A DNA stretch of 10,110 nt, taken from the IMG/VR virus record IMGVR_UViG_3300010280_000146. One strand, 5' to 3'. Source of the stretch: a virus. Its lineage: Duplodnaviria; Heunggongvirae; Uroviricota; Caudoviricetes. Below, in pieces: positions 314 through 8,808 of the stretch; the first letter of the stretch is position 1; every line of letters begins with the position of its first letter. Under the pieces are notes generated by a model, which saw nothing but the letters and a program-made list of their open reading frames with translations, did not search any database and was not told the origin of the DNA. The position numbers and the translations under genes are program-made.

Positions 314-1564
314 GTGCTTACCGATACAAAATTAAAAAACCTCAAGCCGCAGGACAAACTGTACAAGGTCTCCGATCGTGACGGGCTGTATGTAGCTGTT
401 CTTACGTCAGGCACGGTCTCGTTTCGCTACGACTACCGTATCAACGGTCGCCGCGAAACGCTGGTAATCGGGCAGTATGGGCGTGACGGTATCAGCCTGG
501 CAGAAGCGCGAGAAGAACTGATTGCTGCAAAGAAGTTGCTTAAAGCAGGCCAGTCACCGGCTGCGGCTAAACGTGACGGTATCAAAAAGATTCGTGGTGC
601 TGAGACGTTTGCGGTACATACCGACAGTTATATGAAACACGTCATCCTGGCTGAAAGTACCCGCGCAATGAAGCAGGCAGTGATCGACCGTGACATACTT
701 CCTGTTCTTGGCAACAAAATGATGGCTGAAATTACCACATCGATGGTTCGTGATTTGTGTGACCGGATTGTCGAACGCGGTGGCCGGGCAACAGCAGTGC
801 AGGCCAGGGAGATCATCAGCAGCGTATACCGTCACGCCAATGACCGTGGTCATGGTTTGTTTAATCCTGCAGCTGACATTAAACCTTCGTCTATCGCCAT
901 ATTTAAACCACGAGAGCGAACACTGACACCAGAAGAAATTGGCCTGTTCTTCCGCACGTTGGATGCCATTGGTGCTATGGGCACTATGAAAATGGCTTTA
1001 AAGCTGGTGCTTATCACTATGGTTCGTAAAGGCGAATTCACCAATGCAACGTGGGATGAAATAGATTTTAAAAAATGGACATGGACAATTCCTTCAGACC
1101 GCATGAAGGGAAGCCGGGCGCACGTTATTTACCTGCCTAAACAGGCACAGGATATATTGGTCGGGTTGCAGATGTGCGCTGGTGGAAGTGAATATCTGGT
1201 TCCTGGTCGTTACAATTTCCGGAAGCCATTATCTAATGCCGCGCTGAACTCTCTGATCGACAGAACGGTGAAAATAATAAATGAAGATGGTGAGCATATT
1301 CAGGACTTCACTGTACATGATATGCGCCGTACAGCCAGTACATTGTTGCATGAGGCTGGTTATCCTTCAGACTGGATTGAAAAGGCTCTGGCACATGAGC
1401 AGAAAGGTGTGCGCGCCGTATATAACAAAGCGGAATACGCTAGACAGCGCGCCTACATGTTGCAGCAGTGGGCCGATATGATTGATTCCTGGATTAACGG
1501 GGATCATACGGATCTGATTCCGTTCTCCCCGTCGAAGTTTGAGAAGTGGATGGCGGGGGAATAA
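314..1564 (+). CDS. int: Tyrosine recombinase / phage integrase, P4-type (N-terminal arm-binding DUF4102-like domain plus catalytic domain)
   Basis: 416-aa ORF with GTG start. N-terminus LTDTKLKNLKP...LYVAVLTSGTVSFRYDYRINGRRETLVIGQYG is typical of P4-like integrase arm-binding domains; C-terminal HDMRRT (HxxR box) and VRAVYNKAEY (catalytic Tyr region). Sits next to a host gene 3' end. Confidence 0.9.
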   Translation: MLTDTKLKNLKPQDKLYKVSDRDGLYVAVLTSGTVSFRYDYRINGRRETLVIGQYGRDGISLAEAREELIAAKKLLKAGQSPAAAKRDGIKKIRGAETFAVHTDSYMKHVILAESTRAMKQAVIDRDILPVLGNKMMAEITTSMVRDLCDRIVERGGRATAVQAREIISSVYRHANDRGHGLFNPAADIKPSSIAIFKPRERTLTPEEIGLFFRTLDAIGAMGTMKMALKLVLITMVRKGEFTNATWDEIDFKKWTWTIPSDRMKGSRAHVIYLPKQAQDILVGLQMCAGGSEYLVPGRYNFRKPLSNAALNSLIDRTVKIINEDGEHIQDFTVHDMRRTASTLLHEAGYPSDWIEKALAHEQKGVRAVYNKAEYARQRAYMLQQWADMIDSWINGDHTDLIPFSPSKFEKWMAGE

Positions 1565-2810: not shown

Positions 2811-3059
2811 TCATGCAGCGTTGCTCACGGGACGATATACACGTTGCTGAACAGGAGGTTTTTTACCCTGGAACTCTGCTGGGCTTGCTGCCTGACGTTC
2901 ATCAAGCCAACGTTCAACTTCATCACGGTTCCATGCGCAGCGTTTATCGGTGATATACCAGCGTTTGGGAAATTCCCCTGCGCGCTCCATACGGTCGATA
3001 GTGCTCCATGACAGTGGCACCACCGCCAGGAGTTCCTTCTTACCTAATGCACCTTTCAT
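2811..3059 (-). CDS. AlpA/Xis-like excisionase-family DNA-binding protein (MerR-type HTH)
   Basis: 82 aa; LSWSTIDRMERAGEFPKRWYITDKRCAWNRDEVERWLDE fits the AlpA/excisionase HTH_17 pattern (STIYR...G.FP.P......W...E...WL). RBS AGAGG lies 6 nt upstream of ATG 3059. Confidence 0.75.
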   Translation of the reverse strand: MKGALGKKELLAVVPLSWSTIDRMERAGEFPKRWYITDKRCAWNRDEVERWLDERQAASPAEFQGKKPPVQQRVYRPVSNAA

Positions 3060-3108: not shown

Positions 3109-3990
3109 TTACATAGATGTTTCGTTTAATTCTTCCCGACGAACGCTGTAAACGTCGGTGGCTTTTGCCAGCAGTTCGTCATCATCTGAAAGTTTTTGTG
3201 CAATGTATTTGTAAGCCTTATCCAGTTCGGAGACAGTGCTGTAATTCATCGCTGCGCTGGTAAAGGCCATCAGCATTTCTTCTGGATCACGGCTATCCGC
3301 TTTACGCGTTTGCTCATCAGGCTTTTTCACTGGTTTAGCGTTGATCAGACTGTTCATTCCCGCAGCAGTGGTCGTTTGCGGAGTAATGTCTCGCTCAACG
3401 CGCGGTGCCGTTTCCTGTAATTCGTCTGGGGTGTAAACACCGAGAAGTACATCAGGAGCGTGCAGGCGAGCCCATCGTTTCGTGCAAAGATAGGCAAGTT
3501 GCTGGCGCGGATCCTGTTCCCACAATGGAGAGTTACGCACTCCGGCTTGCGCCATACTGATGGTAAGCTCACGGGGTTCTGCTTCTCCTTTAAGAACTGC
3601 TGACACAGTTACCGTCAGATTCGGTGATTTATCTGTTTTGCCGTTAACATTCGACCAGTCACCGCTCCAGCGATAATTCAGGCGTGTCGCTAGCAGGCTG
3701 GAAGAGGATACGACCGCGTTTACCAACTGTGCTTCGTAGCCTAACGTTCCGTTTACCACATGCGTTTTCTGCGCCACGGCGAAAGGGTTCATTCCCCACT
3801 GTGCCGCCTGCATGGTCACCGCCAGGCAATCGGCAGGTTTGCCTTCAAGATGTTTCGGTACAGTCGCTTTGCTTTGTGACATCAACTCCGCGAAACGCAC
3901 CAGTTGATTCATGCCATCGGGGCTGAAGATTGCCGCAGCAGTGCCCACAGTTGCGCCTGGTTGTGATGTGATTGCGATATCATTGCTCAT
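3109..3990 (-). CDS. Bet/RecT-superfamily single-strand annealing protein (lambda Bet-like recombinase)
   Basis: 293 aa; segments MQAAQWGMNPF, NSPLWEQDP...RWARLHAPDVLLGVYTPDE and ERDITP parallel lambda Bet motifs (QYGLNPW, TGPWQSHP...QCARLAFGFAGIYDKDE, ERDITP) as recalled from memory. ATGA overlap with the upstream exonuclease gene. Confidence 0.85.
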   Translation of the reverse strand: MSNDIAITSQPGATVGTAAAIFSPDGMNQLVRFAELMSQSKATVPKHLEGKPADCLAVTMQAAQWGMNPFAVAQKTHVVNGTLGYEAQLVNAVVSSSSLLATRLNYRWSGDWSNVNGKTDKSPNLTVTVSAVLKGEAEPRELTISMAQAGVRNSPLWEQDPRQQLAYLCTKRWARLHAPDVLLGVYTPDELQETAPRVERDITPQTTTAAGMNSLINAKPVKKPDEQTRKADSRDPEEMLMAFTSAAMNYSTVSELDKAYKYIAQKLSDDDELLAKATDVYSVRREELNETSM

Positions 3991-4808
3991 ACGTACATAT
4001 CCTGTTTACGTGCCCAGTCAGGGCGTTTAATAATTTCCACTCCGCCCCATTCATCGTTGATGCGGCATTCGTGGTAGGTATTCAGATCCCGGCGGAACAG
4101 AGCGTGCCCGGCATCGACATCTGGCGCATCCAGCTCGAACACGCGTACCGGATACCGACCACAATCAATGCTTTCGCTCACGGCAAGAAAGAAAAAACCA
4201 TGCGGCTGACCAGTAACCCTCATTGCGCCTTCGCGGTACATTGCGTCCTGCACGTGGTAGCGGAATTCCTCGATGTGGCGTGCAAAACGGTCCATATCCG
4301 CAACCTTTTTCACGTCGACGATCACGTTGTGCTCGTTCAGCCATTTGTCTGGACGAATTCGGCACAACTCACCCGTTTCTTCATCGTTCCAGTACATTGA
4401 TGCTTCGCAGTAACCAGGTGCTTCCAACATCCAGCGTGCCGCCGGATGAGCCATTGCGCTATCACGCATCAGCTCCAGTTTTCGCCACTGCTCGACATCA
4501 AGTACCGCAATACCCATATCCGTCACATCACGAAGAAATGCTTCTTCGTCAGCTTTACCTTGTTTTGTCCGACGATCGAATTTCGGTGAAACGATGAAGC
4601 GTTTGTCGAATTCTCCAGGTTCCAGAAGCAGGCAGTGCAATGCGGTTCCCATATCCAGTGCAGAATTTTTCTCTTCGTCTTCTGGTGCTGCCTGAATCCA
4701 TTTAAGAAGCGCCGGATTCTTGGCAACCATGTCCAGTTGCGACTTACTCACGCCGTCACCGGCGTGGTAGTCTTCGTTGCTGATGTCGAAATAAATTCCC
4801 GGTTTCAT
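3987..4808 (-). CDS. RecE-like PD-(D/E)XK exonuclease (exodeoxyribonuclease VIII-like; partner of the annealing protein)
   Basis: 273 aa; N-terminal GIYFDISNEDYH and the nuclease core RIRPDKW...VIVDVKKV (D...D/E-x-K) plus YHVQDAMY resemble RecE C-terminal-domain-type nucleases; directly upstream of and coupled to the Bet-like gene. Confidence 0.8.
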   Translation of the reverse strand: MKPGIYFDISNEDYHAGDGVSKSQLDMVAKNPALLKWIQAAPEDEEKNSALDMGTALHCLLLEPGEFDKRFIVSPKFDRRTKQGKADEEAFLRDVTDMGIAVLDVEQWRKLELMRDSAMAHPAARWMLEAPGYCEASMYWNDEETGELCRIRPDKWLNEHNVIVDVKKVADMDRFARHIEEFRYHVQDAMYREGAMRVTGQPHGFFFLAVSESIDCGRYPVRVFELDAPDVDAGHALFRRDLNTYHECRINDEWGGVEIIKRPDWARKQDMYV

Positions 4809-5278: not shown

Positions 5279-5293
5279 TTACCGTTGAGGTAA
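5279..5293. promoter_or_regulatory. Operator-like palindrome TTACC GTTGA GGTAA (leftward early promoter region, site 1)
   Basis: Perfect 5-bp inverted half-sites with a 5-bp spacer; overlaps the putative -10 and start-site region of the leftward promoter. Confidence 0.45.
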
Positions 5294-5340: not shown

Positions 5341-5355
5341 TTACCCGTTAGGTAA
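5341..5355. promoter_or_regulatory. Operator-like palindrome TTACC CGTTA GGTAA (leftward early promoter region, site 2)
   Basis: Perfect inverted half-sites; centre is 62 bp from the centre of site 5279-5293. Confidence 0.45.
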
Positions 5356-5412: not shown

Positions 5413-5997
5413 TTATTGTTTGTTTTTTTCGTTCTGGTTGATGACAAATTCAATGTAACTTTCGATCTTTGCCTTCTCTGTTTCAGGTAACAATGCGTAG
5501 CGCGAGCGGTCATAGTTGATAGTTGCAGGGTCATGCGGATGAATCAGTAGTTCATATCCGTGACGCCCGAATGCAGATGCAACATTCTCCAGGGTGGAAA
5601 TGGAAACGCTGACCTCATTGTTTAACAGGCGGCTTATTGTCACCTGGGCGACGCCGGATGCGCGGTGAAGTTTTCCCTGAGTTGAAAGGTCGCGGCTTTC
5701 ACTCATCCAGCGTTCCAGGTTGTGAGCTGCCAGCTGACCAATGTCGCTTGGGCCGACAGGCTGAAAACCTTCCTGAGAAAGCGAGCGATCGATATCAAGC
5801 CAGTTACGGGGTTTATTGGCGGCAGCTTCAATTTTTCGCGCAACCTGGTCGCCGATAACCTTCTTGCCAAGAGCCCAGCGGTTTACCAGATTTGCCTGAG
5901 TTCCAAGTTTTTCTGCCATCCGCGTCTGAACACCATTGAATTCACGGTCGATCAAGTCGTTGAGATTTTGCCTGCGGACGTCCTGGATACTTTTCAT
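5413..5997 (-). CDS. Tandem helix-turn-helix (two XRE-type HTH domains) transcriptional regulator; candidate prophage repressor
   Basis: 194 aa. First HTH around GVQTRMAEKLGTQANLVNRWALGKKVIGDQVARKIEAA, second around LHRASGVAQVTISRLLNNEVSVSISTLENVASAF. No LexA/S24 peptidase motifs seen. Placed like cI, divergent from a Cro-like gene, with its own terminator. Confidence 0.75.
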   Translation of the reverse strand: MKSIQDVRRQNLNDLIDREFNGVQTRMAEKLGTQANLVNRWALGKKVIGDQVARKIEAAANKPRNWLDIDRSLSQEGFQPVGPSDIGQLAAHNLERWMSESRDLSTQGKLHRASGVAQVTISRLLNNEVSVSISTLENVASAFGRHGYELLIHPHDPATINYDRSRYALLPETEKAKIESYIEFVINQNEKNKQ

Positions 5998-6052: not shown

Positions 6053-6067
6053 TTACCCAACAGGTAA
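6053..6067. promoter_or_regulatory. Operator-like palindrome TTACC CAACA GGTAA (divergent promoter region, site 1)
   Basis: Perfect inverted half-sites between the repressor-candidate start (5997) and the Cro-like start (6152). Confidence 0.45.
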
Positions 6068-6069
6068 AT

Positions 6070-6084
6070 GCACCCCATAGGTAA
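6070..6084. promoter_or_regulatory. Degenerate operator-like site GCACC CCATA GGTAA (divergent promoter region, site 2)
   Basis: Right half-site perfect, left half-site 3 of 5; centre 17 bp from site 1. Confidence 0.3.
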
Positions 6085-6090
6085 CTATCC

Positions 6091-6127
6091 TTGATTTTTG
6101 TTACCTTATGGGTGAATATTTATTATC
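6091..6127 (+). promoter_or_regulatory. Putative pR-like promoter for the Cro-like gene (element assignment ambiguous)
   Basis: Candidate -35 TTGATT (6091-6096) or TTGTTA (6099-6104) with -10 TATTAT (6121-6126, 16-bp spacer from the latter); overlaps operator-like site 3. Confidence 0.3.
6101..6115. promoter_or_regulatory. Operator-like site TTACC TTATG GGTGA (divergent promoter region, site 3)
   Basis: Left half-site perfect, right half-site 4 of 5; overlaps the candidate rightward promoter. Confidence 0.35.
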
Positions 6128-6151: not shown

Positions 6152-6382
6152 ATGAGCGATAACGGACATTTCGATTTCAAAAAGCACTGGCTTGCACTTA
6201 CTCCGGATGAGCGTGAAGCCTTCGCACAGGAAGCCGGAACGACGAGTCACTATATCCAGACTCACTTAACAGGTAAGCGCAAAATGCCAGGTAAGGTATT
6301 GATGAATGGGCTTTTTAAAGCCTGTAAAACAAGACAATGGCTGCGCTCAAAAGCGGAACTGGCATACTTCTTCTACTCATGA
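6152..6382 (+). CDS. Cro/YdaS-like small HTH regulator
   Basis: 76 aa; LTPDEREAFAQEAGTTSHYIQTHLTGKRKMPGKVLMNGLFKACK fits Cro/CI-type and YdaS-like HTH proteins. Divergent from the repressor candidate and followed by a terminator. Confidence 0.7.
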   Translation: MSDNGHFDFKKHWLALTPDEREAFAQEAGTTSHYIQTHLTGKRKMPGKVLMNGLFKACKTRQWLRSKAELAYFFYS

Positions 6383-6403
6383 TATCTGGCAACAACCCTC
6401 TGT

Positions 6404-6427
6404 AGACCGCCATCCGGCGGTCTTTTC
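6404..6427 (+). terminator. Rho-independent terminator directly after the Cro-like gene
   Basis: Stem AGACCGCC (6404-6411) / GGCGGTCT (6416-6423), loop ATCC, then a short T-run (6424-6426). Confidence 0.55.
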
Positions 6428-6437
6428 ATATCTATTC

Positions 6438-6452
6438 GTACCTCAAAGGTAA
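6438..6452. promoter_or_regulatory. Operator-like site GTACC TCAAA GGTAA upstream of the replication operon
   Basis: 9 of 10 half-site positions match TTACC/GGTAA; lies between the cro terminator and the 66-aa gene, followed by a TTGATA -35-like hexamer at 6470-6475. Confidence 0.3.
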
Positions 6453-6532
6453 TAAAAAACCAAATCTGGTTGATATTTTTTTTGTGTCAGCACAAAATAA
6501 CCGTAATCCCAATACTAATAACAGGGCTTACC

Positions 6533-6733
6533 ATGGAAATCATTACACGTATTGATGCCGCAAAGCGCGGACTTAAACGCTACTACACCGGAAAACCATG
6601 TAAGCACGGACATGACAGTGAACGCTGGGTTTACAACGGACACTGTGTTGAGTGCACCATGGAATCAAACCGTCGCATCAGGGCAGAGATTAAGCAGATC
6701 ATGATTAATTCCTCCCCACAACATTCAAGCTGA
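6533..6733 (+). CDS. Small Cys/His-containing (putative zinc-binding) protein at the cII-equivalent position
   Basis: Preferred internal ATG 6533 of track ORF 6470..6733. 66 aa, MEIITRIDAAKRGLKRYYTGKPCKHGHDSERWVYNGHCVECT..., with a C-x-H-x-H ... C-x-x-C arrangement. The track's upstream extension is hydrophobic and lies in promoter DNA. Confidence 0.55.
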   Translation: MEIITRIDAAKRGLKRYYTGKPCKHGHDSERWVYNGHCVECTMESNRRIRAEIKQIMINSSPQHSS

Positions 6734-6748
6734 TAGCGGAGATTAATC

Positions 6749-7564
6749 ATGAGCAGACATGCAACAGATTGGGCCTGGGAGACAGATCCAGGTAGCTCGT
6801 CATTAAAGCTCATACTGCTCTCGATGGCTGACAGAGCCGATGAATATAACCTCTGCTACCCCAGCATAGAACGCCTCGTTAAAGACACTTGTCTGAATAA
6901 AAAAACCGTGCAGGCCGGGCTTATATCGCTCATGAAAATGGGGCTTATTTCAGATACCGGAGAGAGAAAGGGAGCGACAAAAAGAGTGCGGGTTTTCTCT
7001 CTTAATATAACCAAAAACGGGAACATTAAAGGCAACCGGGAGGGGGGCAATGAACCCGAAAACGGTAATGTTACCGAAAACGGGAATATACCCAAAAACG
7101 GGATGTTGAATGATCCCAAAAACGGGATGTTGAATGATCCCAAAAACGGGATCCAGAACCAGTCATATAACCGGTCATTTAACCAAGAGAGGGAGAGCAG
7201 GACAAAAAACGGGGATTCTGTGTCTCATGACCCCGGCGCAAACAACGCCGTGATGAATAACTTTGTTCCTCCTGGTGGGCCAGGGCAATTAGGCAAATTT
7301 GTCATGCATGAACAATGGCAGCCATCAGATGACTTTCTTCGGAAAAGCTCATTGCAGGGAATCTACCTGGATAGTCTGCCAACGGCACAGGAACTTGCAG
7401 AGTTCAGAATTTACTGGATGGCTGAGGGTAAGGCATACCATCAGGCACAGTGGGAGCAGAAGCTGGCAAGGCGGCTGCAGATTAGCAGACAGAAGCAATC
7501 AACATTACCTGATAACAACGTTCCGCACTGGAACAGCCCTGAAGCGTGGGAGGATTTCTTGTGA
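6749..7564 (+). CDS. Replication initiator (O-like): N-terminal winged-HTH domain, Asn/Gly-rich repeat linker, C-terminal DnaT-like domain
   Basis: 271 aa. N-terminus MSRHATDWAWE...LKLILLSMADRADE...SIERLVKDTCLNKKTVQAGLISLMKMGLIS (HTH_36-like). C-terminus WQPSDDFLRKSSLQGIYLDSLPTAQELAEFRIYWMAEGKAYHQAQWEQKLARRLQISRQ closely parallels the E. coli DnaT C-terminal region (WQPDADF...[29 protein letters not shown], recalled). RBS GGAG 8 nt upstream. Confidence 0.85.
   Translation: MSRHATDWAWETDPGSSSLKLILLSMADRADEYNLCYPSIERLVKDTCLNKKTVQAGLISLMKMGLISDTGERKGATKRVRVFSLNITKNGNIKGNREGGNEPENGNVTENGNIPKNGMLNDPKNGMLNDPKNGIQNQSYNRSFNQERESRTKNGDSVSHDPGANNAVMNNFVPPGGPGQLGKFVMHEQWQPSDDFLRKSSLQGIYLDSLPTAQELAEFRIYWMAEGKAYHQAQWEQKLARRLQISRQKQSTLPDNNVPHWNSPEAWEDFL
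7011..7150 (+). repeat. Iteron-like direct repeats inside the O-like gene (candidate origin of replication)
   Basis: Six copies of the core C(C)nAAAACGG(G) at 7011, 7055, 7075, 7091, 7115 and 7139, including two exact 24-bp tandem units CCCAAAAACGGGATGTTGAATGAT (7091-7114, 7115-7138); they encode the repeated NGMLNDPK linker. Confidence 0.6.
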
Positions 7565-8346
7565 ACAACGTTTTTACCGCGATACAAAACCGTGACGGAG
7601 AAGCCCTTTCTCGCATGTCAGGTTATGAGCATCAGTACACCAACAATGACAACGTGGTGAACATGTCAGCAGAGAGGCTTGTTGATGCCCTTTTCAAACA
7701 GCTGAAACAACTGTTTCCGGCGGCAGTGGTAACCAACCTGAAGACGCCAGAGCAGGAAGTTGCTGCAAAACAGCAGTGGATTGCTGCGTTTGCCGAAGGG
7801 GGGATCCGAACCCGTGAACAGGTTTCTGCTGGTATGCGCCACGCCCGCGCCAGTGAATCTCCGTTCTGGCCGTCGCCAGGGCAATTCATCAAGTGGTGTA
7901 AAGACAGCAAGATGGTTCTTGGCGTCACCATTGACGATGTGATGGCGGAGTTTCACCGGTACAGCAAGGAAAAAAGTTTATATCCTGGTGGTCCCGAAAG
8001 ATTCCCGTGGCGGCATCCGGTTATGTACTGGGTCGTATGTGATACCCGCCGTGCAATGTATCAGCGCCAGCTTAGCGAGATTGAGGTTGAGAAACACGCG
8101 CGCAGGCTGCTCGATGATTGGGCGAAAAAGGTGGCTTCCGGACAGCAGATACCCGATCCGGTGATCAGCATACAGGCAAAGCCAGAGCCCATGAGTACAC
8201 CTCCGGACACAGGGAGAGACGTTTACCATCCACCAGGGCGAAGTTTCGGGTGCATGCCTAACGCCGCCACTCTGGGGGGAATAACACCGGCGCAGTGGCT
8301 GATGGAGGAATACAGGCGGGGAAAGGCGGCAGGATTTATCAAGTAA
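7561..8346 (+). CDS. Lambda P-like replication protein (DnaB helicase loader)
   Basis: GTG 7561 with GGGAGG 7 nt upstream, overlapping the O-like stop (GTGA). FPAAVVTNLKTPEQEVAAKQQWIAAFAEGGIRTREQVSAGMRHARASESPFWPSPGQFIKWC parallels lambda P (FPASLANRDQNEVNEIRRQWVLAFRENGITTMEQVNAGMRVARRQNRPFLPSPGQFVAWC, recalled). The track start at 7546 is an alternative. Confidence 0.75.
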   Translation: MNNVFTAIQNRDGEALSRMSGYEHQYTNNDNVVNMSAERLVDALFKQLKQLFPAAVVTNLKTPEQEVAAKQQWIAAFAEGGIRTREQVSAGMRHARASESPFWPSPGQFIKWCKDSKMVLGVTIDDVMAEFHRYSKEKSLYPGGPERFPWRHPVMYWVVCDTRRAMYQRQLSEIEVEKHARRLLDDWAKKVASGQQIPDPVISIQAKPEPMSTPPDTGRDVYHPPGRSFGCMPNAATLGGITPAQWLMEEYRRGKAAGFIK

Positions 8347-8383
8347 TACCAGCGCGATAGCGCATTTTTTTACGCCTTGATAA

Positions 8384-8398
8384 TTACCTTTTGGGTAA
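8384..8398. promoter_or_regulatory. Operator-like palindrome TTACC TTTTG GGTAA downstream of the P-like gene
   Basis: Perfect inverted half-sites in the AT-rich intergenic region 8347-8463. Confidence 0.4.
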
Positions 8399-8445
8399 TA
8401 AAGTATTCTAAACTCTATTGATTTCGTGTCTTATGTGGTTTTTAA

Positions 8446-8460
8446 TTACCTCAGGGGTAA
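8446..8460. promoter_or_regulatory. Operator-like palindrome TTACC TCAGG GGTAA abutting the DUF1064 gene start
   Basis: Perfect inverted half-sites ending 3 nt before ATG 8464 and overlapping the likely RBS; centre 62 bp from site 8384-8398. Confidence 0.4.
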
Positions 8461-8463
8461 ATC

Positions 8464-8808
8464 ATGAGAAAACAGATACAGGCTCTTGGTCGACTCAAAA
8501 CAGGCCAGATGAACAAAACAGAATCTGCGTATTGCCAGCACCTTGAGCTGCGTAAACGTGCAGGAGAAATCGTCTGGTATCGATTTGAGGGTATCAAGCT
8601 GCGGTTAGCTGACAACACGTTCTATACGCCCGATTTTGCTGTGATGCTCGCCACCGGCGAGATGGAACTGCACGAAGTGAAAGGTTTCTGGACCGACGAC
8701 GCCAGGGTGAAAACCAAAGTCGCCGCAGATCAGTATCCGTTCCGAATCATCGGGGTAACGGTTAAACCAAAGAAAGCAGGTGGTGGCTGGAACATCGAAG
8801 AGTTCTGA
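8464..8808 (+). CDS. DUF1064-family phage protein (nuclease-like fold, function unknown)
   Basis: 114 aa; NKTESAYCQHLELRKRAGEIVWYRFEGIKLRL...YTPDFAVMLATGEMELHEVKGFWTDDARVKTKVAADQYP fits the DUF1064 pattern as recalled. Confidence 0.65.
   Translation: MRKQIQALGRLKTGQMNKTESAYCQHLELRKRAGEIVWYRFEGIKLRLADNTFYTPDFAVMLATGEMELHEVKGFWTDDARVKTKVAADQYPFRIIGVTVKPKKAGGGWNIEEF

Follow-up and report, generated by a model that had tools for sequence, protein, structure and literature searches.

What does a temperate phage encode in the slot that lambda gives to cII, when the occupant does not resemble CII? This question is raised by a 10,110-nucleotide (nt) stretch of viral DNA, hereafter the window (IMG/VR virus record IMGVR_UViG_3300010280_000146; Duplodnaviria, Heunggongvirae, Uroviricota, Caudoviricetes), in which an open reading frame (ORF) for a 66-residue protein lies at positions 6533..6733. 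The window covers the early region of a temperate podophage of the genus Uetakevirus that resembles phiV10 and epsilon15 and is present as a prophage; window positions 6400-6800 share 98-99.8% identity with phiV10, vB_EcoP_PAS61 and related records. Judged by sequence, the small protein consists of a single free-standing copy of a module that is widespread in phages and mostly found fused to nucleases. The gene itself is a known 'hypothetical'; what is new is the stand-alone module as a conserved early gene of temperate phages, which is undescribed in the literature found. At present it is a conserved hypothetical protein whose domain assignment is well supported, not a demonstrated new mechanism.

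A Conserved Gene of the Early Region

The gene in question is the following.

6533..6733, plus strand: gene for a small protein with a predicted zinc module, 66 amino acids (ORF; PHROG 1081; purifying selection)

Its translation is MEIITRIDAAKRGLKRYYTGKPCKHGHDSERWVYNGHCVECTMESNRRIRAEIKQIMINSSPQHSS, in which PCKHGH occupies residues 22-27 and CVEC residues 38-41. The ORF and its Cys/His motifs had been called in an initial annotation made from the DNA sequence, and the translation agrees with that call exactly. A purine-rich AGGG at 6523-6526 precedes the ATG at 6533, and homologues of the small protein begin M[EK]II[TS]R, which makes this ATG the supported start on sequence grounds. An in-frame TTG at 6470 was considered as a start and is disfavoured by the homologue N-termini, by the AGGG and by the conserved non-coding promoter region upstream.

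The protein matches the profile of PHROG 1081 ('unknown function') along its whole length (E = 7.7e-43, residues 1-66 aligned with positions 1-66 of the 67 in the profile). Its identity to phiV10 p42 (YP_512297) is 98%, to Tyrion gp42 85%, and to epsilon15 gp40 (AAO06103) and SPN1S_0045 52-54%. All four of these orthologues occupy the same slot, in the order repressor, cro-like gene, terminator, small gene and replication genes. The window protein does not differ in kind from phiV10 p42, epsilon15 gp40 or the other members of PHROG 1081, all of which are named 'hypothetical protein' in a family that has no function label. The identical 201 bases, again labelled 'hypothetical protein', are present in 424 of 5426 complete E. 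coli genomes, and the copy is 99-100% conserved across 405 E. coli records. More widely, an intact ORF of constant length holds a fixed position in phages of Escherichia, Salmonella, Klebsiella and Enterobacter, including relatives in which the repressor is only 34% identical.

Divergence between orthologues is concentrated at synonymous sites. Against Enterobacter phage Tyrion the proportions of synonymous and nonsynonymous differences are pS = 0.69 and pN = 0.12 (a ratio of nonsynonymous to synonymous substitution rates, dN/dS, of ~0.07), and against Klebsiella phage Kp4865-1 they are pS = 0.69 and pN = 0.17. Overall, dN/dS is ~0.07-0.10, with synonymous sites near saturation. By these comparisons the gene is real and under strong purifying selection.

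Several copies have escaped annotation. GenBank records carry an unannotated homologue in ZX5 (L010 in our numbering of loci, 3632-3844), in the Stx phage TL-2011b (6424-6582) and in phage BP9 (134721-134918); in ZX5 and TL-2011b the homologue has a TTG start and overlaps the next gene. A search of Rfam gave no RNA element within the small gene or close to it. Neither the small protein nor the module is mentioned in the literature found on phiV10 and epsilon15 regulation, Uetakevirus, SPC32H, NUMOD and zinc finger modules, or PHROG 1081.

Four Invariant Putative Ligands and a Predicted Fold

Relatives of the small protein were collected by an exhaustive profile search over 1.84 billion cluster representatives (50% identity clusters), and residue statistics were taken from 392 module copies in the 149 best representative proteins. 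Across these copies C23, C38 and C41 are each conserved in 100% and H27 in 99%. In 79 diverse copies with <55% mutual identity, these four columns and no others are invariant. Small stand-alone homologues likewise keep C23, H27 and C38 invariant, with C41 either invariant or present in at least 90%; in a set of 23 distant ones, no column outside the four is invariant.

The initial annotation had given the spacing as C-x-H-x-H ... C-x-x-C and had named loss of the Cys and His residues among homologues as the outcome that would speak against a metal site. All four of C23, H27, C38 and C41 are retained. The middle histidine of the proposed motif is not part of the pattern, residue 25 being His in only 28% of the 392 copies, Arg in 22% and Asn in 18%, and H37 is likewise not conserved. 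The conserved site, as read from the alignments, is C-x3-H-x10-C-x2-C (Cys-His-Cys-Cys, CHCC), far beyond what chance would produce. The four invariant ligands strongly imply a metal site, which is predicted to hold one zinc, in keeping with the metal-binding reading of the annotation. The window protein also has the full scaffold of the family, namely R6, A9, G13, [YF]17, [FY]18, T19, G20, P22, G26 and R31.

6599-6601, plus strand: codon of C23, zinc ligand predicted from conservation
6611-6613, plus strand: codon of H27, zinc ligand predicted from conservation
6644-6646, plus strand: codon of C38, zinc ligand predicted from conservation
6653-6655, plus strand: codon of C41, zinc ligand predicted from conservation
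6647..6712, plus strand: long basic C-terminal helix, residues 39-60 (AlphaFold; subfamily-specific motif NRRxxAEIKxxM)

AlphaFold2 models of the protein reach a predicted local distance difference test score (pLDDT) of 82.4 with a shallow alignment and of 90.5, with a predicted template modelling score (pTM) of 0.66, with a deeper one, and the two agree in topology. The modelled elements are a helix at residues 6-11, strands at 16-18 and 30-34 that flank the loop from C23 to H27, and a long helix at 39-60, which is opened by C38-x2-C41 in both models. Placement of the second ligand pair at a helix N-terminus suggests a treble-clef-like arrangement. The 'ribbon' of the initial annotation, a class with two zinc knuckles each on a beta-hairpin, is not what the models show, as the second pair opens a long helix; fold searches matched neither class. 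Within the p42 subfamily R48, E52, I53, K54 and M57 of the long helix are nearly invariant, and across the wider family the helix stretch tends to be basic. The small protein as a whole has 12 basic and 7 acidic residues, with Arg6 and Arg31 conserved.

Searches of known structures returned little. No PDB sequence scored below E = 1 against either of two profiles, fold searches gave no match to any structural class and no relative with bound DNA, and a BFVD search returned only members of the same family. The DnaG-type zf-CHC2 finger has its ligands in the same order (Cys, His, Cys, Cys) and likewise belongs to a replication setting. In DnaG, however, the ligand spacing is C-x2-H-x17-C-x2-C, as against C-x3-H-x10-C-x2-C in the small protein. 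As a candidate identity, zf-CHC2 (PF01807) was rejected, there being no Pfam match at E <= 1, no PDB sequence match and no fold match. Another group of small phage proteins, which includes Ogr/Delta of P2, Com of Mu and TraR/DksA-like proteins, has in common with the small protein a size of 60-75 residues, a single metal site and an association with phage regulation. These proteins, however, use four Cys ligands at other spacings, and none of their Pfam models matches the small protein at E <= 1.

A Module Family Joined to Nucleases

The profile search places the small protein in a large family, which has 16,433 representatives at E <= 1e-3, of which 3,319 also reach E <= 1e-10. Top representatives carry 2-5 tandem copies of the module ~50-75 residues apart, and the range in the family is 1-5. 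Pfam and NCBIfam have no family for it, as judged from scans of the small protein and of multi-copy relatives. The PHROGs that contain the module are phrog_1081, a few smaller families of 'unknown function', and phrog_1035 ('endonuclease VII'), in which it forms the N-terminal part.

The partners of the module are predominantly nucleases. Among the 149 representatives, Pfam detects HNH in 37, HNH_5 in 35 and Endonuclease_7 in 18, and a looser HNH-like motif is found in 70. Relatives in BFVD are named, by description only, as GIY-YIG 'group I intron endonuclease', endonuclease VII and HNH proteins. A first scan of IMG/VR had yielded only prophages 98-100% identical to the window, and a second scan was seeded with a distant homologue. 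In the resulting set of 80 diverse loci, 49 ORFs combine the module with an HNH motif, and the module is N-terminal in 49 of the 49. The same loci hold two more Pfam-confirmed HNH or endonuclease VII proteins and twelve small stand-alone proteins; C-terminal regions of the remaining ORFs have no Pfam domain. Few further sequences, and no names, were gained when a diverse profile was used in a word-indexed search of proteins.

Not every partner is recognisable. Five IMG/VR loci (L108, L126, L143, L138 and L170) encode proteins of 140-225 residues with one N-terminal module and a C-terminal region free of Pfam domains and nuclease motifs, so that the module is joined to effector domains of other kinds as well. 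The module was also considered as a degenerate HNH or His-Me finger and rejected, as hhalign comparison with 70 HNH regions of the same proteins gave a probability of 0.3%. PADLOC models matched neither the window protein nor either of two multi-copy relatives.

A close parallel in architecture is offered by the nuclease-associated modules of the NUMOD type: the present module, too, is short, occurs singly or in tandem, and is found on HNH, endonuclease VII and, by description, GIY-YIG nucleases of phages. It differs from them in its CHCC metal site and in that here it is free-standing, nuclease-less and under selection. NUMOD1, NUMOD3 and NUMOD4 have no Pfam match to the window protein at E <= 1, nor to the 149 representatives at E <= 1e-3, and no Pfam model of AP2 matches the module. 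Attachment of short modules, single or tandem, to nuclease domains is the architecture of homing endonucleases (PMC5714182). Because a short module in variable copy number is joined to unrelated nuclease domains of mobile phage genes, DNA binding is the leading interpretation of the module.

Linkage with the Replication Cassette

The small gene lies between immunity genes and replication genes, with the initiator ATG 15 nt past its stop codon.

5413..5997, minus strand: prophage repressor (phiV10 p40; two HTH_3 domains in Pfam, phrog_8; the phiV10 repressor is 100% identical)
6152..6382, plus strand: cro-like gene (phiV10 p41; phrog_35 'transcriptional repressor', E = 5.6e-13; synteny)
6749..7564, plus strand: replication initiator (HTH_36, PF13730, 1.8e-10; DnaT DNA-binding domain, PF17948, 1.2e-15; phrog_1032, 9e-108)
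7546..8346, plus strand: lambda P-like helicase loader (Pfam PF06992, 1.5e-56; phrog_109, 2.4e-92)

To which of these two groups the small gene belongs is indicated by mosaic relatives. In ZX5 and TL-2011b the repressor and the cro-like protein are 98-100% identical to those of the window, with the small protein at 60% and the initiator at 46%, and the mosaic breakpoint falls at ~6475, inside the putative promoter upstream of the small gene. The small gene has therefore been exchanged together with the replication cassette. A stand-alone module is also encoded directly upstream of a replication initiator in three further loci: L011, which is a phage with Terminase_2/3 and Phage_portal_3 genes; L018, in which the module protein is only 36% identical and the downstream gene matches phrog_22470 ('replication protein'); and L128. 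The initial annotation had named two possible roles, a lysis-lysogeny regulator and a replication accessory factor, of which the genetic linkage favours the second.

Accessory genes seem to be inserted preferentially at the junction of the small gene with the replication gene that follows. A DNA (cytosine) methyltransferase gene is found there in epsilon15 (L002, 3201-4370) and in L104 (3192-4250). L114 and L134, which are distant Uetakevirus-like viral contigs, have an HNH gene at the same junction; it encodes a 257-residue endonuclease of phrog_16986 and overlaps the last codons of the small gene by 10 nt. The HNH gene is absent from L128 (3190-3225), which is otherwise 86-87% identical to L114 and L134, and such a polymorphism, as seen in these sequences, is typical of a free-standing homing endonuclease gene.

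The Upstream Control Region

Several elements are packed between the cro-like gene and the small gene, and one of them recurs through the window.

6404..6427, plus strand: intrinsic terminator, 8-bp GC-rich stem and T-run, in a tR1-like position (annotated terminator in phiV10)
6438..6452, plus strand: repressor-operator-like site GTACC-N5-GGTAA, one mismatch from TTACC-N5-GGTAA
6458..6471: palindrome AACCAAATCTGGTT, overlapping the -35 element (read from sequence)
6470..6498, plus strand: sigma-70 promoter-like TTGATA-17-CAAAAT, 9/12 matches (-35 at 6470-6475, -10 at 6493-6498)
257-271, 5279-5293, 5341-5355, 6053-6067, 6070-6084, 6101-6115, 6438-6452, 8384-8398 and 8446-8460: operator-like sites

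With two or fewer mismatches, TTACC-N5-GGTAA has 11 matches in the window against 3.0 expected, a number reached in 0 of 200 shuffles. Perfect copies stand at 5279, 5341 and 6053, flanking the repressor gene, and at 8384 and 8446. The motif also matches the annotated repressor operators of epsilon15, ATTACC-N5-GGTAAT, though the two repressors are only 42% identical. The copy at 6438 is kept as [AG]TACC-N5-GGTAAT in Tyrion, epsilon15, Kp4865-1 and L104. The palindrome that follows it is kept as CCA-N4-TGG or ACC-N6-GGTT in the window, ZX5, Tyrion, epsilon15 and Kp4865-1.

Conservation extends through the region as a whole. The 6404..6427 hairpin is kept in all aligned relatives, and in Tyrion, epsilon15, Kp4865-1, ZX5 and L104 the operator-like site, GGTTGAT and the -10 region are retained along with it. 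Hairpin and promoter elements persist even where the repressor is only 34% identical, and the distant relative L114 has TATAAT at -10. These patterns suggest that the small ORF is the first gene of a separately promoted and probably repressor-controlled replication operon. The initial annotation had likewise placed the ORF first in the replication operon, in the position equivalent to cII, and this placement is supported: the operon runs rightward, and the ORF is preceded by a cro-like gene and a terminator. Conservation was also used to look for the DNA target of the small protein; the operator-like site and the palindrome are conserved, and neither is assignable to the small protein.

A similar arrangement occurs further downstream. 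A promoter-like TTGATA-16-TAAAGT at 8377-8404 lies upstream of the DUF1064 gene and has the perfect operator TTACCTTTTGGGTAA (8384-8398) in its spacer. Together with the operators at 8384-8398 and 8446-8460, it suggests a third repressor-controlled early promoter.

A Proposed Role for the Small Protein

Because of the fusion partners of its family, we infer that the small protein binds DNA: it is probably a zinc-dependent nucleic-acid-binding finger and specifically a DNA binder. One Zn2+ would be held by C23 and H27 in the loop of the beta-hairpin and by C38 and C41 at the start of the long basic helix. Contact with DNA would be made by the basic helix, by Arg6 and Arg31, which are conserved, and by surface positions that vary. 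Such a protein has probably been derived by domestication of the DNA-targeting part of a homing nuclease. A precedent for a homing-type DNA-binding part in gene control is provided, by analogy, by I-TevI, a homing nuclease with a zinc finger in its DNA-binding region, which binds an operator in its own promoter and acts as an autorepressor. The I-TevI finger itself has a four-Cys site and serves mainly as a linker or distance element, and no sequence or fold similarity between it and the small protein was detected.

The narrower proposal, that the small protein is a DNA-binding accessory of the replication or early-right module acting at or near its own operon, is plausible and falls a little short of probable. 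In this scheme, transcription would start from the promoter past the post-cro terminator, beside the repressor-operator-like site, so that the small protein would be made only after derepression or infection, along with the initiator and the helicase loader. It would then bind phage DNA at the operon, in the promoter region or at the origin, and thereby tune expression or initiation.

Several observations count against this proposal. The match to a sigma-70 promoter is by itself at chance level (5 sites against 4.7 expected), and only its conservation supports a promoter. Adjacency to the replication gene is interrupted by the methyltransferase gene in epsilon15 and L104 and by the HNH gene in L114 (756 bp, 3190-3945) and L134. 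Other stand-alone homologues adjoin HNH genes or lie in unrelated or uninformative contexts. The small protein stays 77-85% identical while the N-terminal domain of the initiator is replaced, and the literature yielded no experimental datum on the small protein or on any member of its family. A version of the proposal in which the small protein reads the same origin repeats as the initiator was rejected, as the two show no co-variation at the initiator N-terminal domain; conservation of the small protein despite the swap of that domain argues against shared origin recognition.

A broader reading of the family is considered rather unlikely. The module would be an undescribed modular class of zinc-finger DNA recognition, in which arrays of 1-5 units read long targets in the manner of C2H2 or TALE proteins, and the Uetakevirus protein would be a domesticated single unit that regulates the switch or replication and fills the slot of CII.

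Alternative Explanations

One alternative, that the small protein is a functional analogue of CII, is unlikely. A zinc finger would bind near a weak leftward promoter past cro and activate the repressor gene, and perhaps the integrase gene, leading to lysogeny. The protein does stand in the cII slot, after a cro-like gene and a tR1-like terminator and before O- and P-like genes, and Pfam and PHROG scans reveal no other candidate establishment regulator among the window proteins. A leftward promoter-like site is present at 6406..6379, and the terminator has no T-run on the minus strand; leftward transcripts could enter the cro-like and repressor genes. That site, however, matches in 9 of 12 positions, which is the frequency expected by chance, and neither epsilon15 nor Kp4865-1 conserves the region in which it lies. 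The likeness to lambda CII (Pfam Phage_CII) and to P22 C1 is one of position only, after cro and the terminator and before the replication genes: CII is a helix-turn-helix (HTH) tetramer, whereas the small protein has the predicted zinc site and a model made of a helix, a beta-hairpin and a long helix. With no Pfam match of any kind at E <= 1, no HTH in the AlphaFold model and no relation in sequence or fold, the initial annotation was right to set the protein apart from lambda CII. Exchange of the small gene independently of the repressor and cro alleles (60% against 98-100%) would be tolerable for a self-contained cII/PRE unit, yet does not support one, and relatives in the family are mostly nuclease fusions in virulent phages.

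Involvement in homing-endonuclease traffic is quite improbable. Here the small protein would be a DNA-recognition subunit acting in trans for a separate HNH nuclease, or a nuclease-less decoy that sits on the local target site and shields the phage from related homing nucleases. The arrangement in L114 and L134 is suggestive, since the small gene overlaps at its 3' end with the HNH gene, which follows it in the module-then-HNH order of the fusions (N-terminal in all 49), while L128 is without it. Moreover, P0221, a stand-alone protein of 60 residues, is encoded 3 nt upstream of an HNH gene, and P0204 adjoins another. The window and most Uetakeviruses, however, have no HNH gene at this locus, and the small gene is equally conserved with and without an HNH neighbour. 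The inserted HNH protein also belongs to a full-length family of its own (phrog_16986, E = 2e-98) with an extra C-terminal region of 180 residues, and looks like an autonomous mobile gene.

There is little likelihood, too, that the module binds protein or RNA instead of DNA, for instance a host replication or transcription factor, with the tandem arrays of the fusions serving another purpose. P2 Ogr is an example of a small phage zinc protein that binds RNA polymerase. The module has no fold match to any DNA-binding class, and about one third of its multi-copy or longer relatives have no recognisable nuclease. Against this stand the basic helix, the conservation of Arg6 and Arg31, and the excess of basic over acidic residues. 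Fusions to three nuclease types recur, moreover, with the nuclease always C-terminal and the copies variable in number, and this is the classical pattern of DNA-recognition modules (PMC5714182 for architecture of the NUMOD type).

Finally, a decaying remnant of a homing endonuclease that has lost its nuclease domain and has no function is highly improbable: most family members are nuclease fusions, the p42/initiator junction is a demonstrated insertion site for the HNH and methyltransferase genes, and the ORF is unannotated in several database records, but the low dN/dS at saturating synonymous divergence, the constant length and fixed synteny across four host genera with all ligand and scaffold residues kept, and the near-complete conservation in E. 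coli records all speak against decay.

Implications

More than 16,000 clusters (50% identity) contain the module with no Pfam or NCBIfam entry and no solved structure, and its description would annotate thousands of 'hypothetical' phage proteins. It would also put a name to the part that targets DNA in many homing nucleases of the HNH and endonuclease VII types, and if tandem modules do read DNA in a modular fashion, they could offer a new scaffold for programmable DNA recognition. The Uetakeviruses (phiV10, epsilon15, SPN1S, SPC32H and the Stx phage TL-2011b) find use as reporters and in biocontrol. Studies of these phages have addressed their repressor/antirepressor switch; the first gene of the replication operon, a small gene present in about 8% of complete E. 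coli genomes, is the obvious candidate for the missing early regulator.

Other Features of the Window

The remaining genes that were assigned in the window are listed below.

314..1564: integrase gene
2811..3059, minus strand: AlpA-like gene
3109..3990, minus strand: RecT gene
3987..4808, minus strand: exonuclease gene
8464..8808: DUF1064 resolvase-like gene

Within the replication initiator gene, six direct repeats of approximately CC(C/A)AAAAACGGGA occur at 7003-7155, spaced at 18-24 nt with one larger gap, and they encode the repetitive NG-rich linker of the initiator. From the sequence, this array looks like an iteron-type origin placed within the initiator gene, as in lambda O. In the recombination region, RecT and the exonuclease are separate ORFs in the window with a 4-nt overlap, whereas the phiV10 reference record has one coding sequence of 1761 bp (649-2409) described as a RecE-RecT fusion; the discrepancy reflects either a genuine frameshift or a fault in annotation or sequencing.

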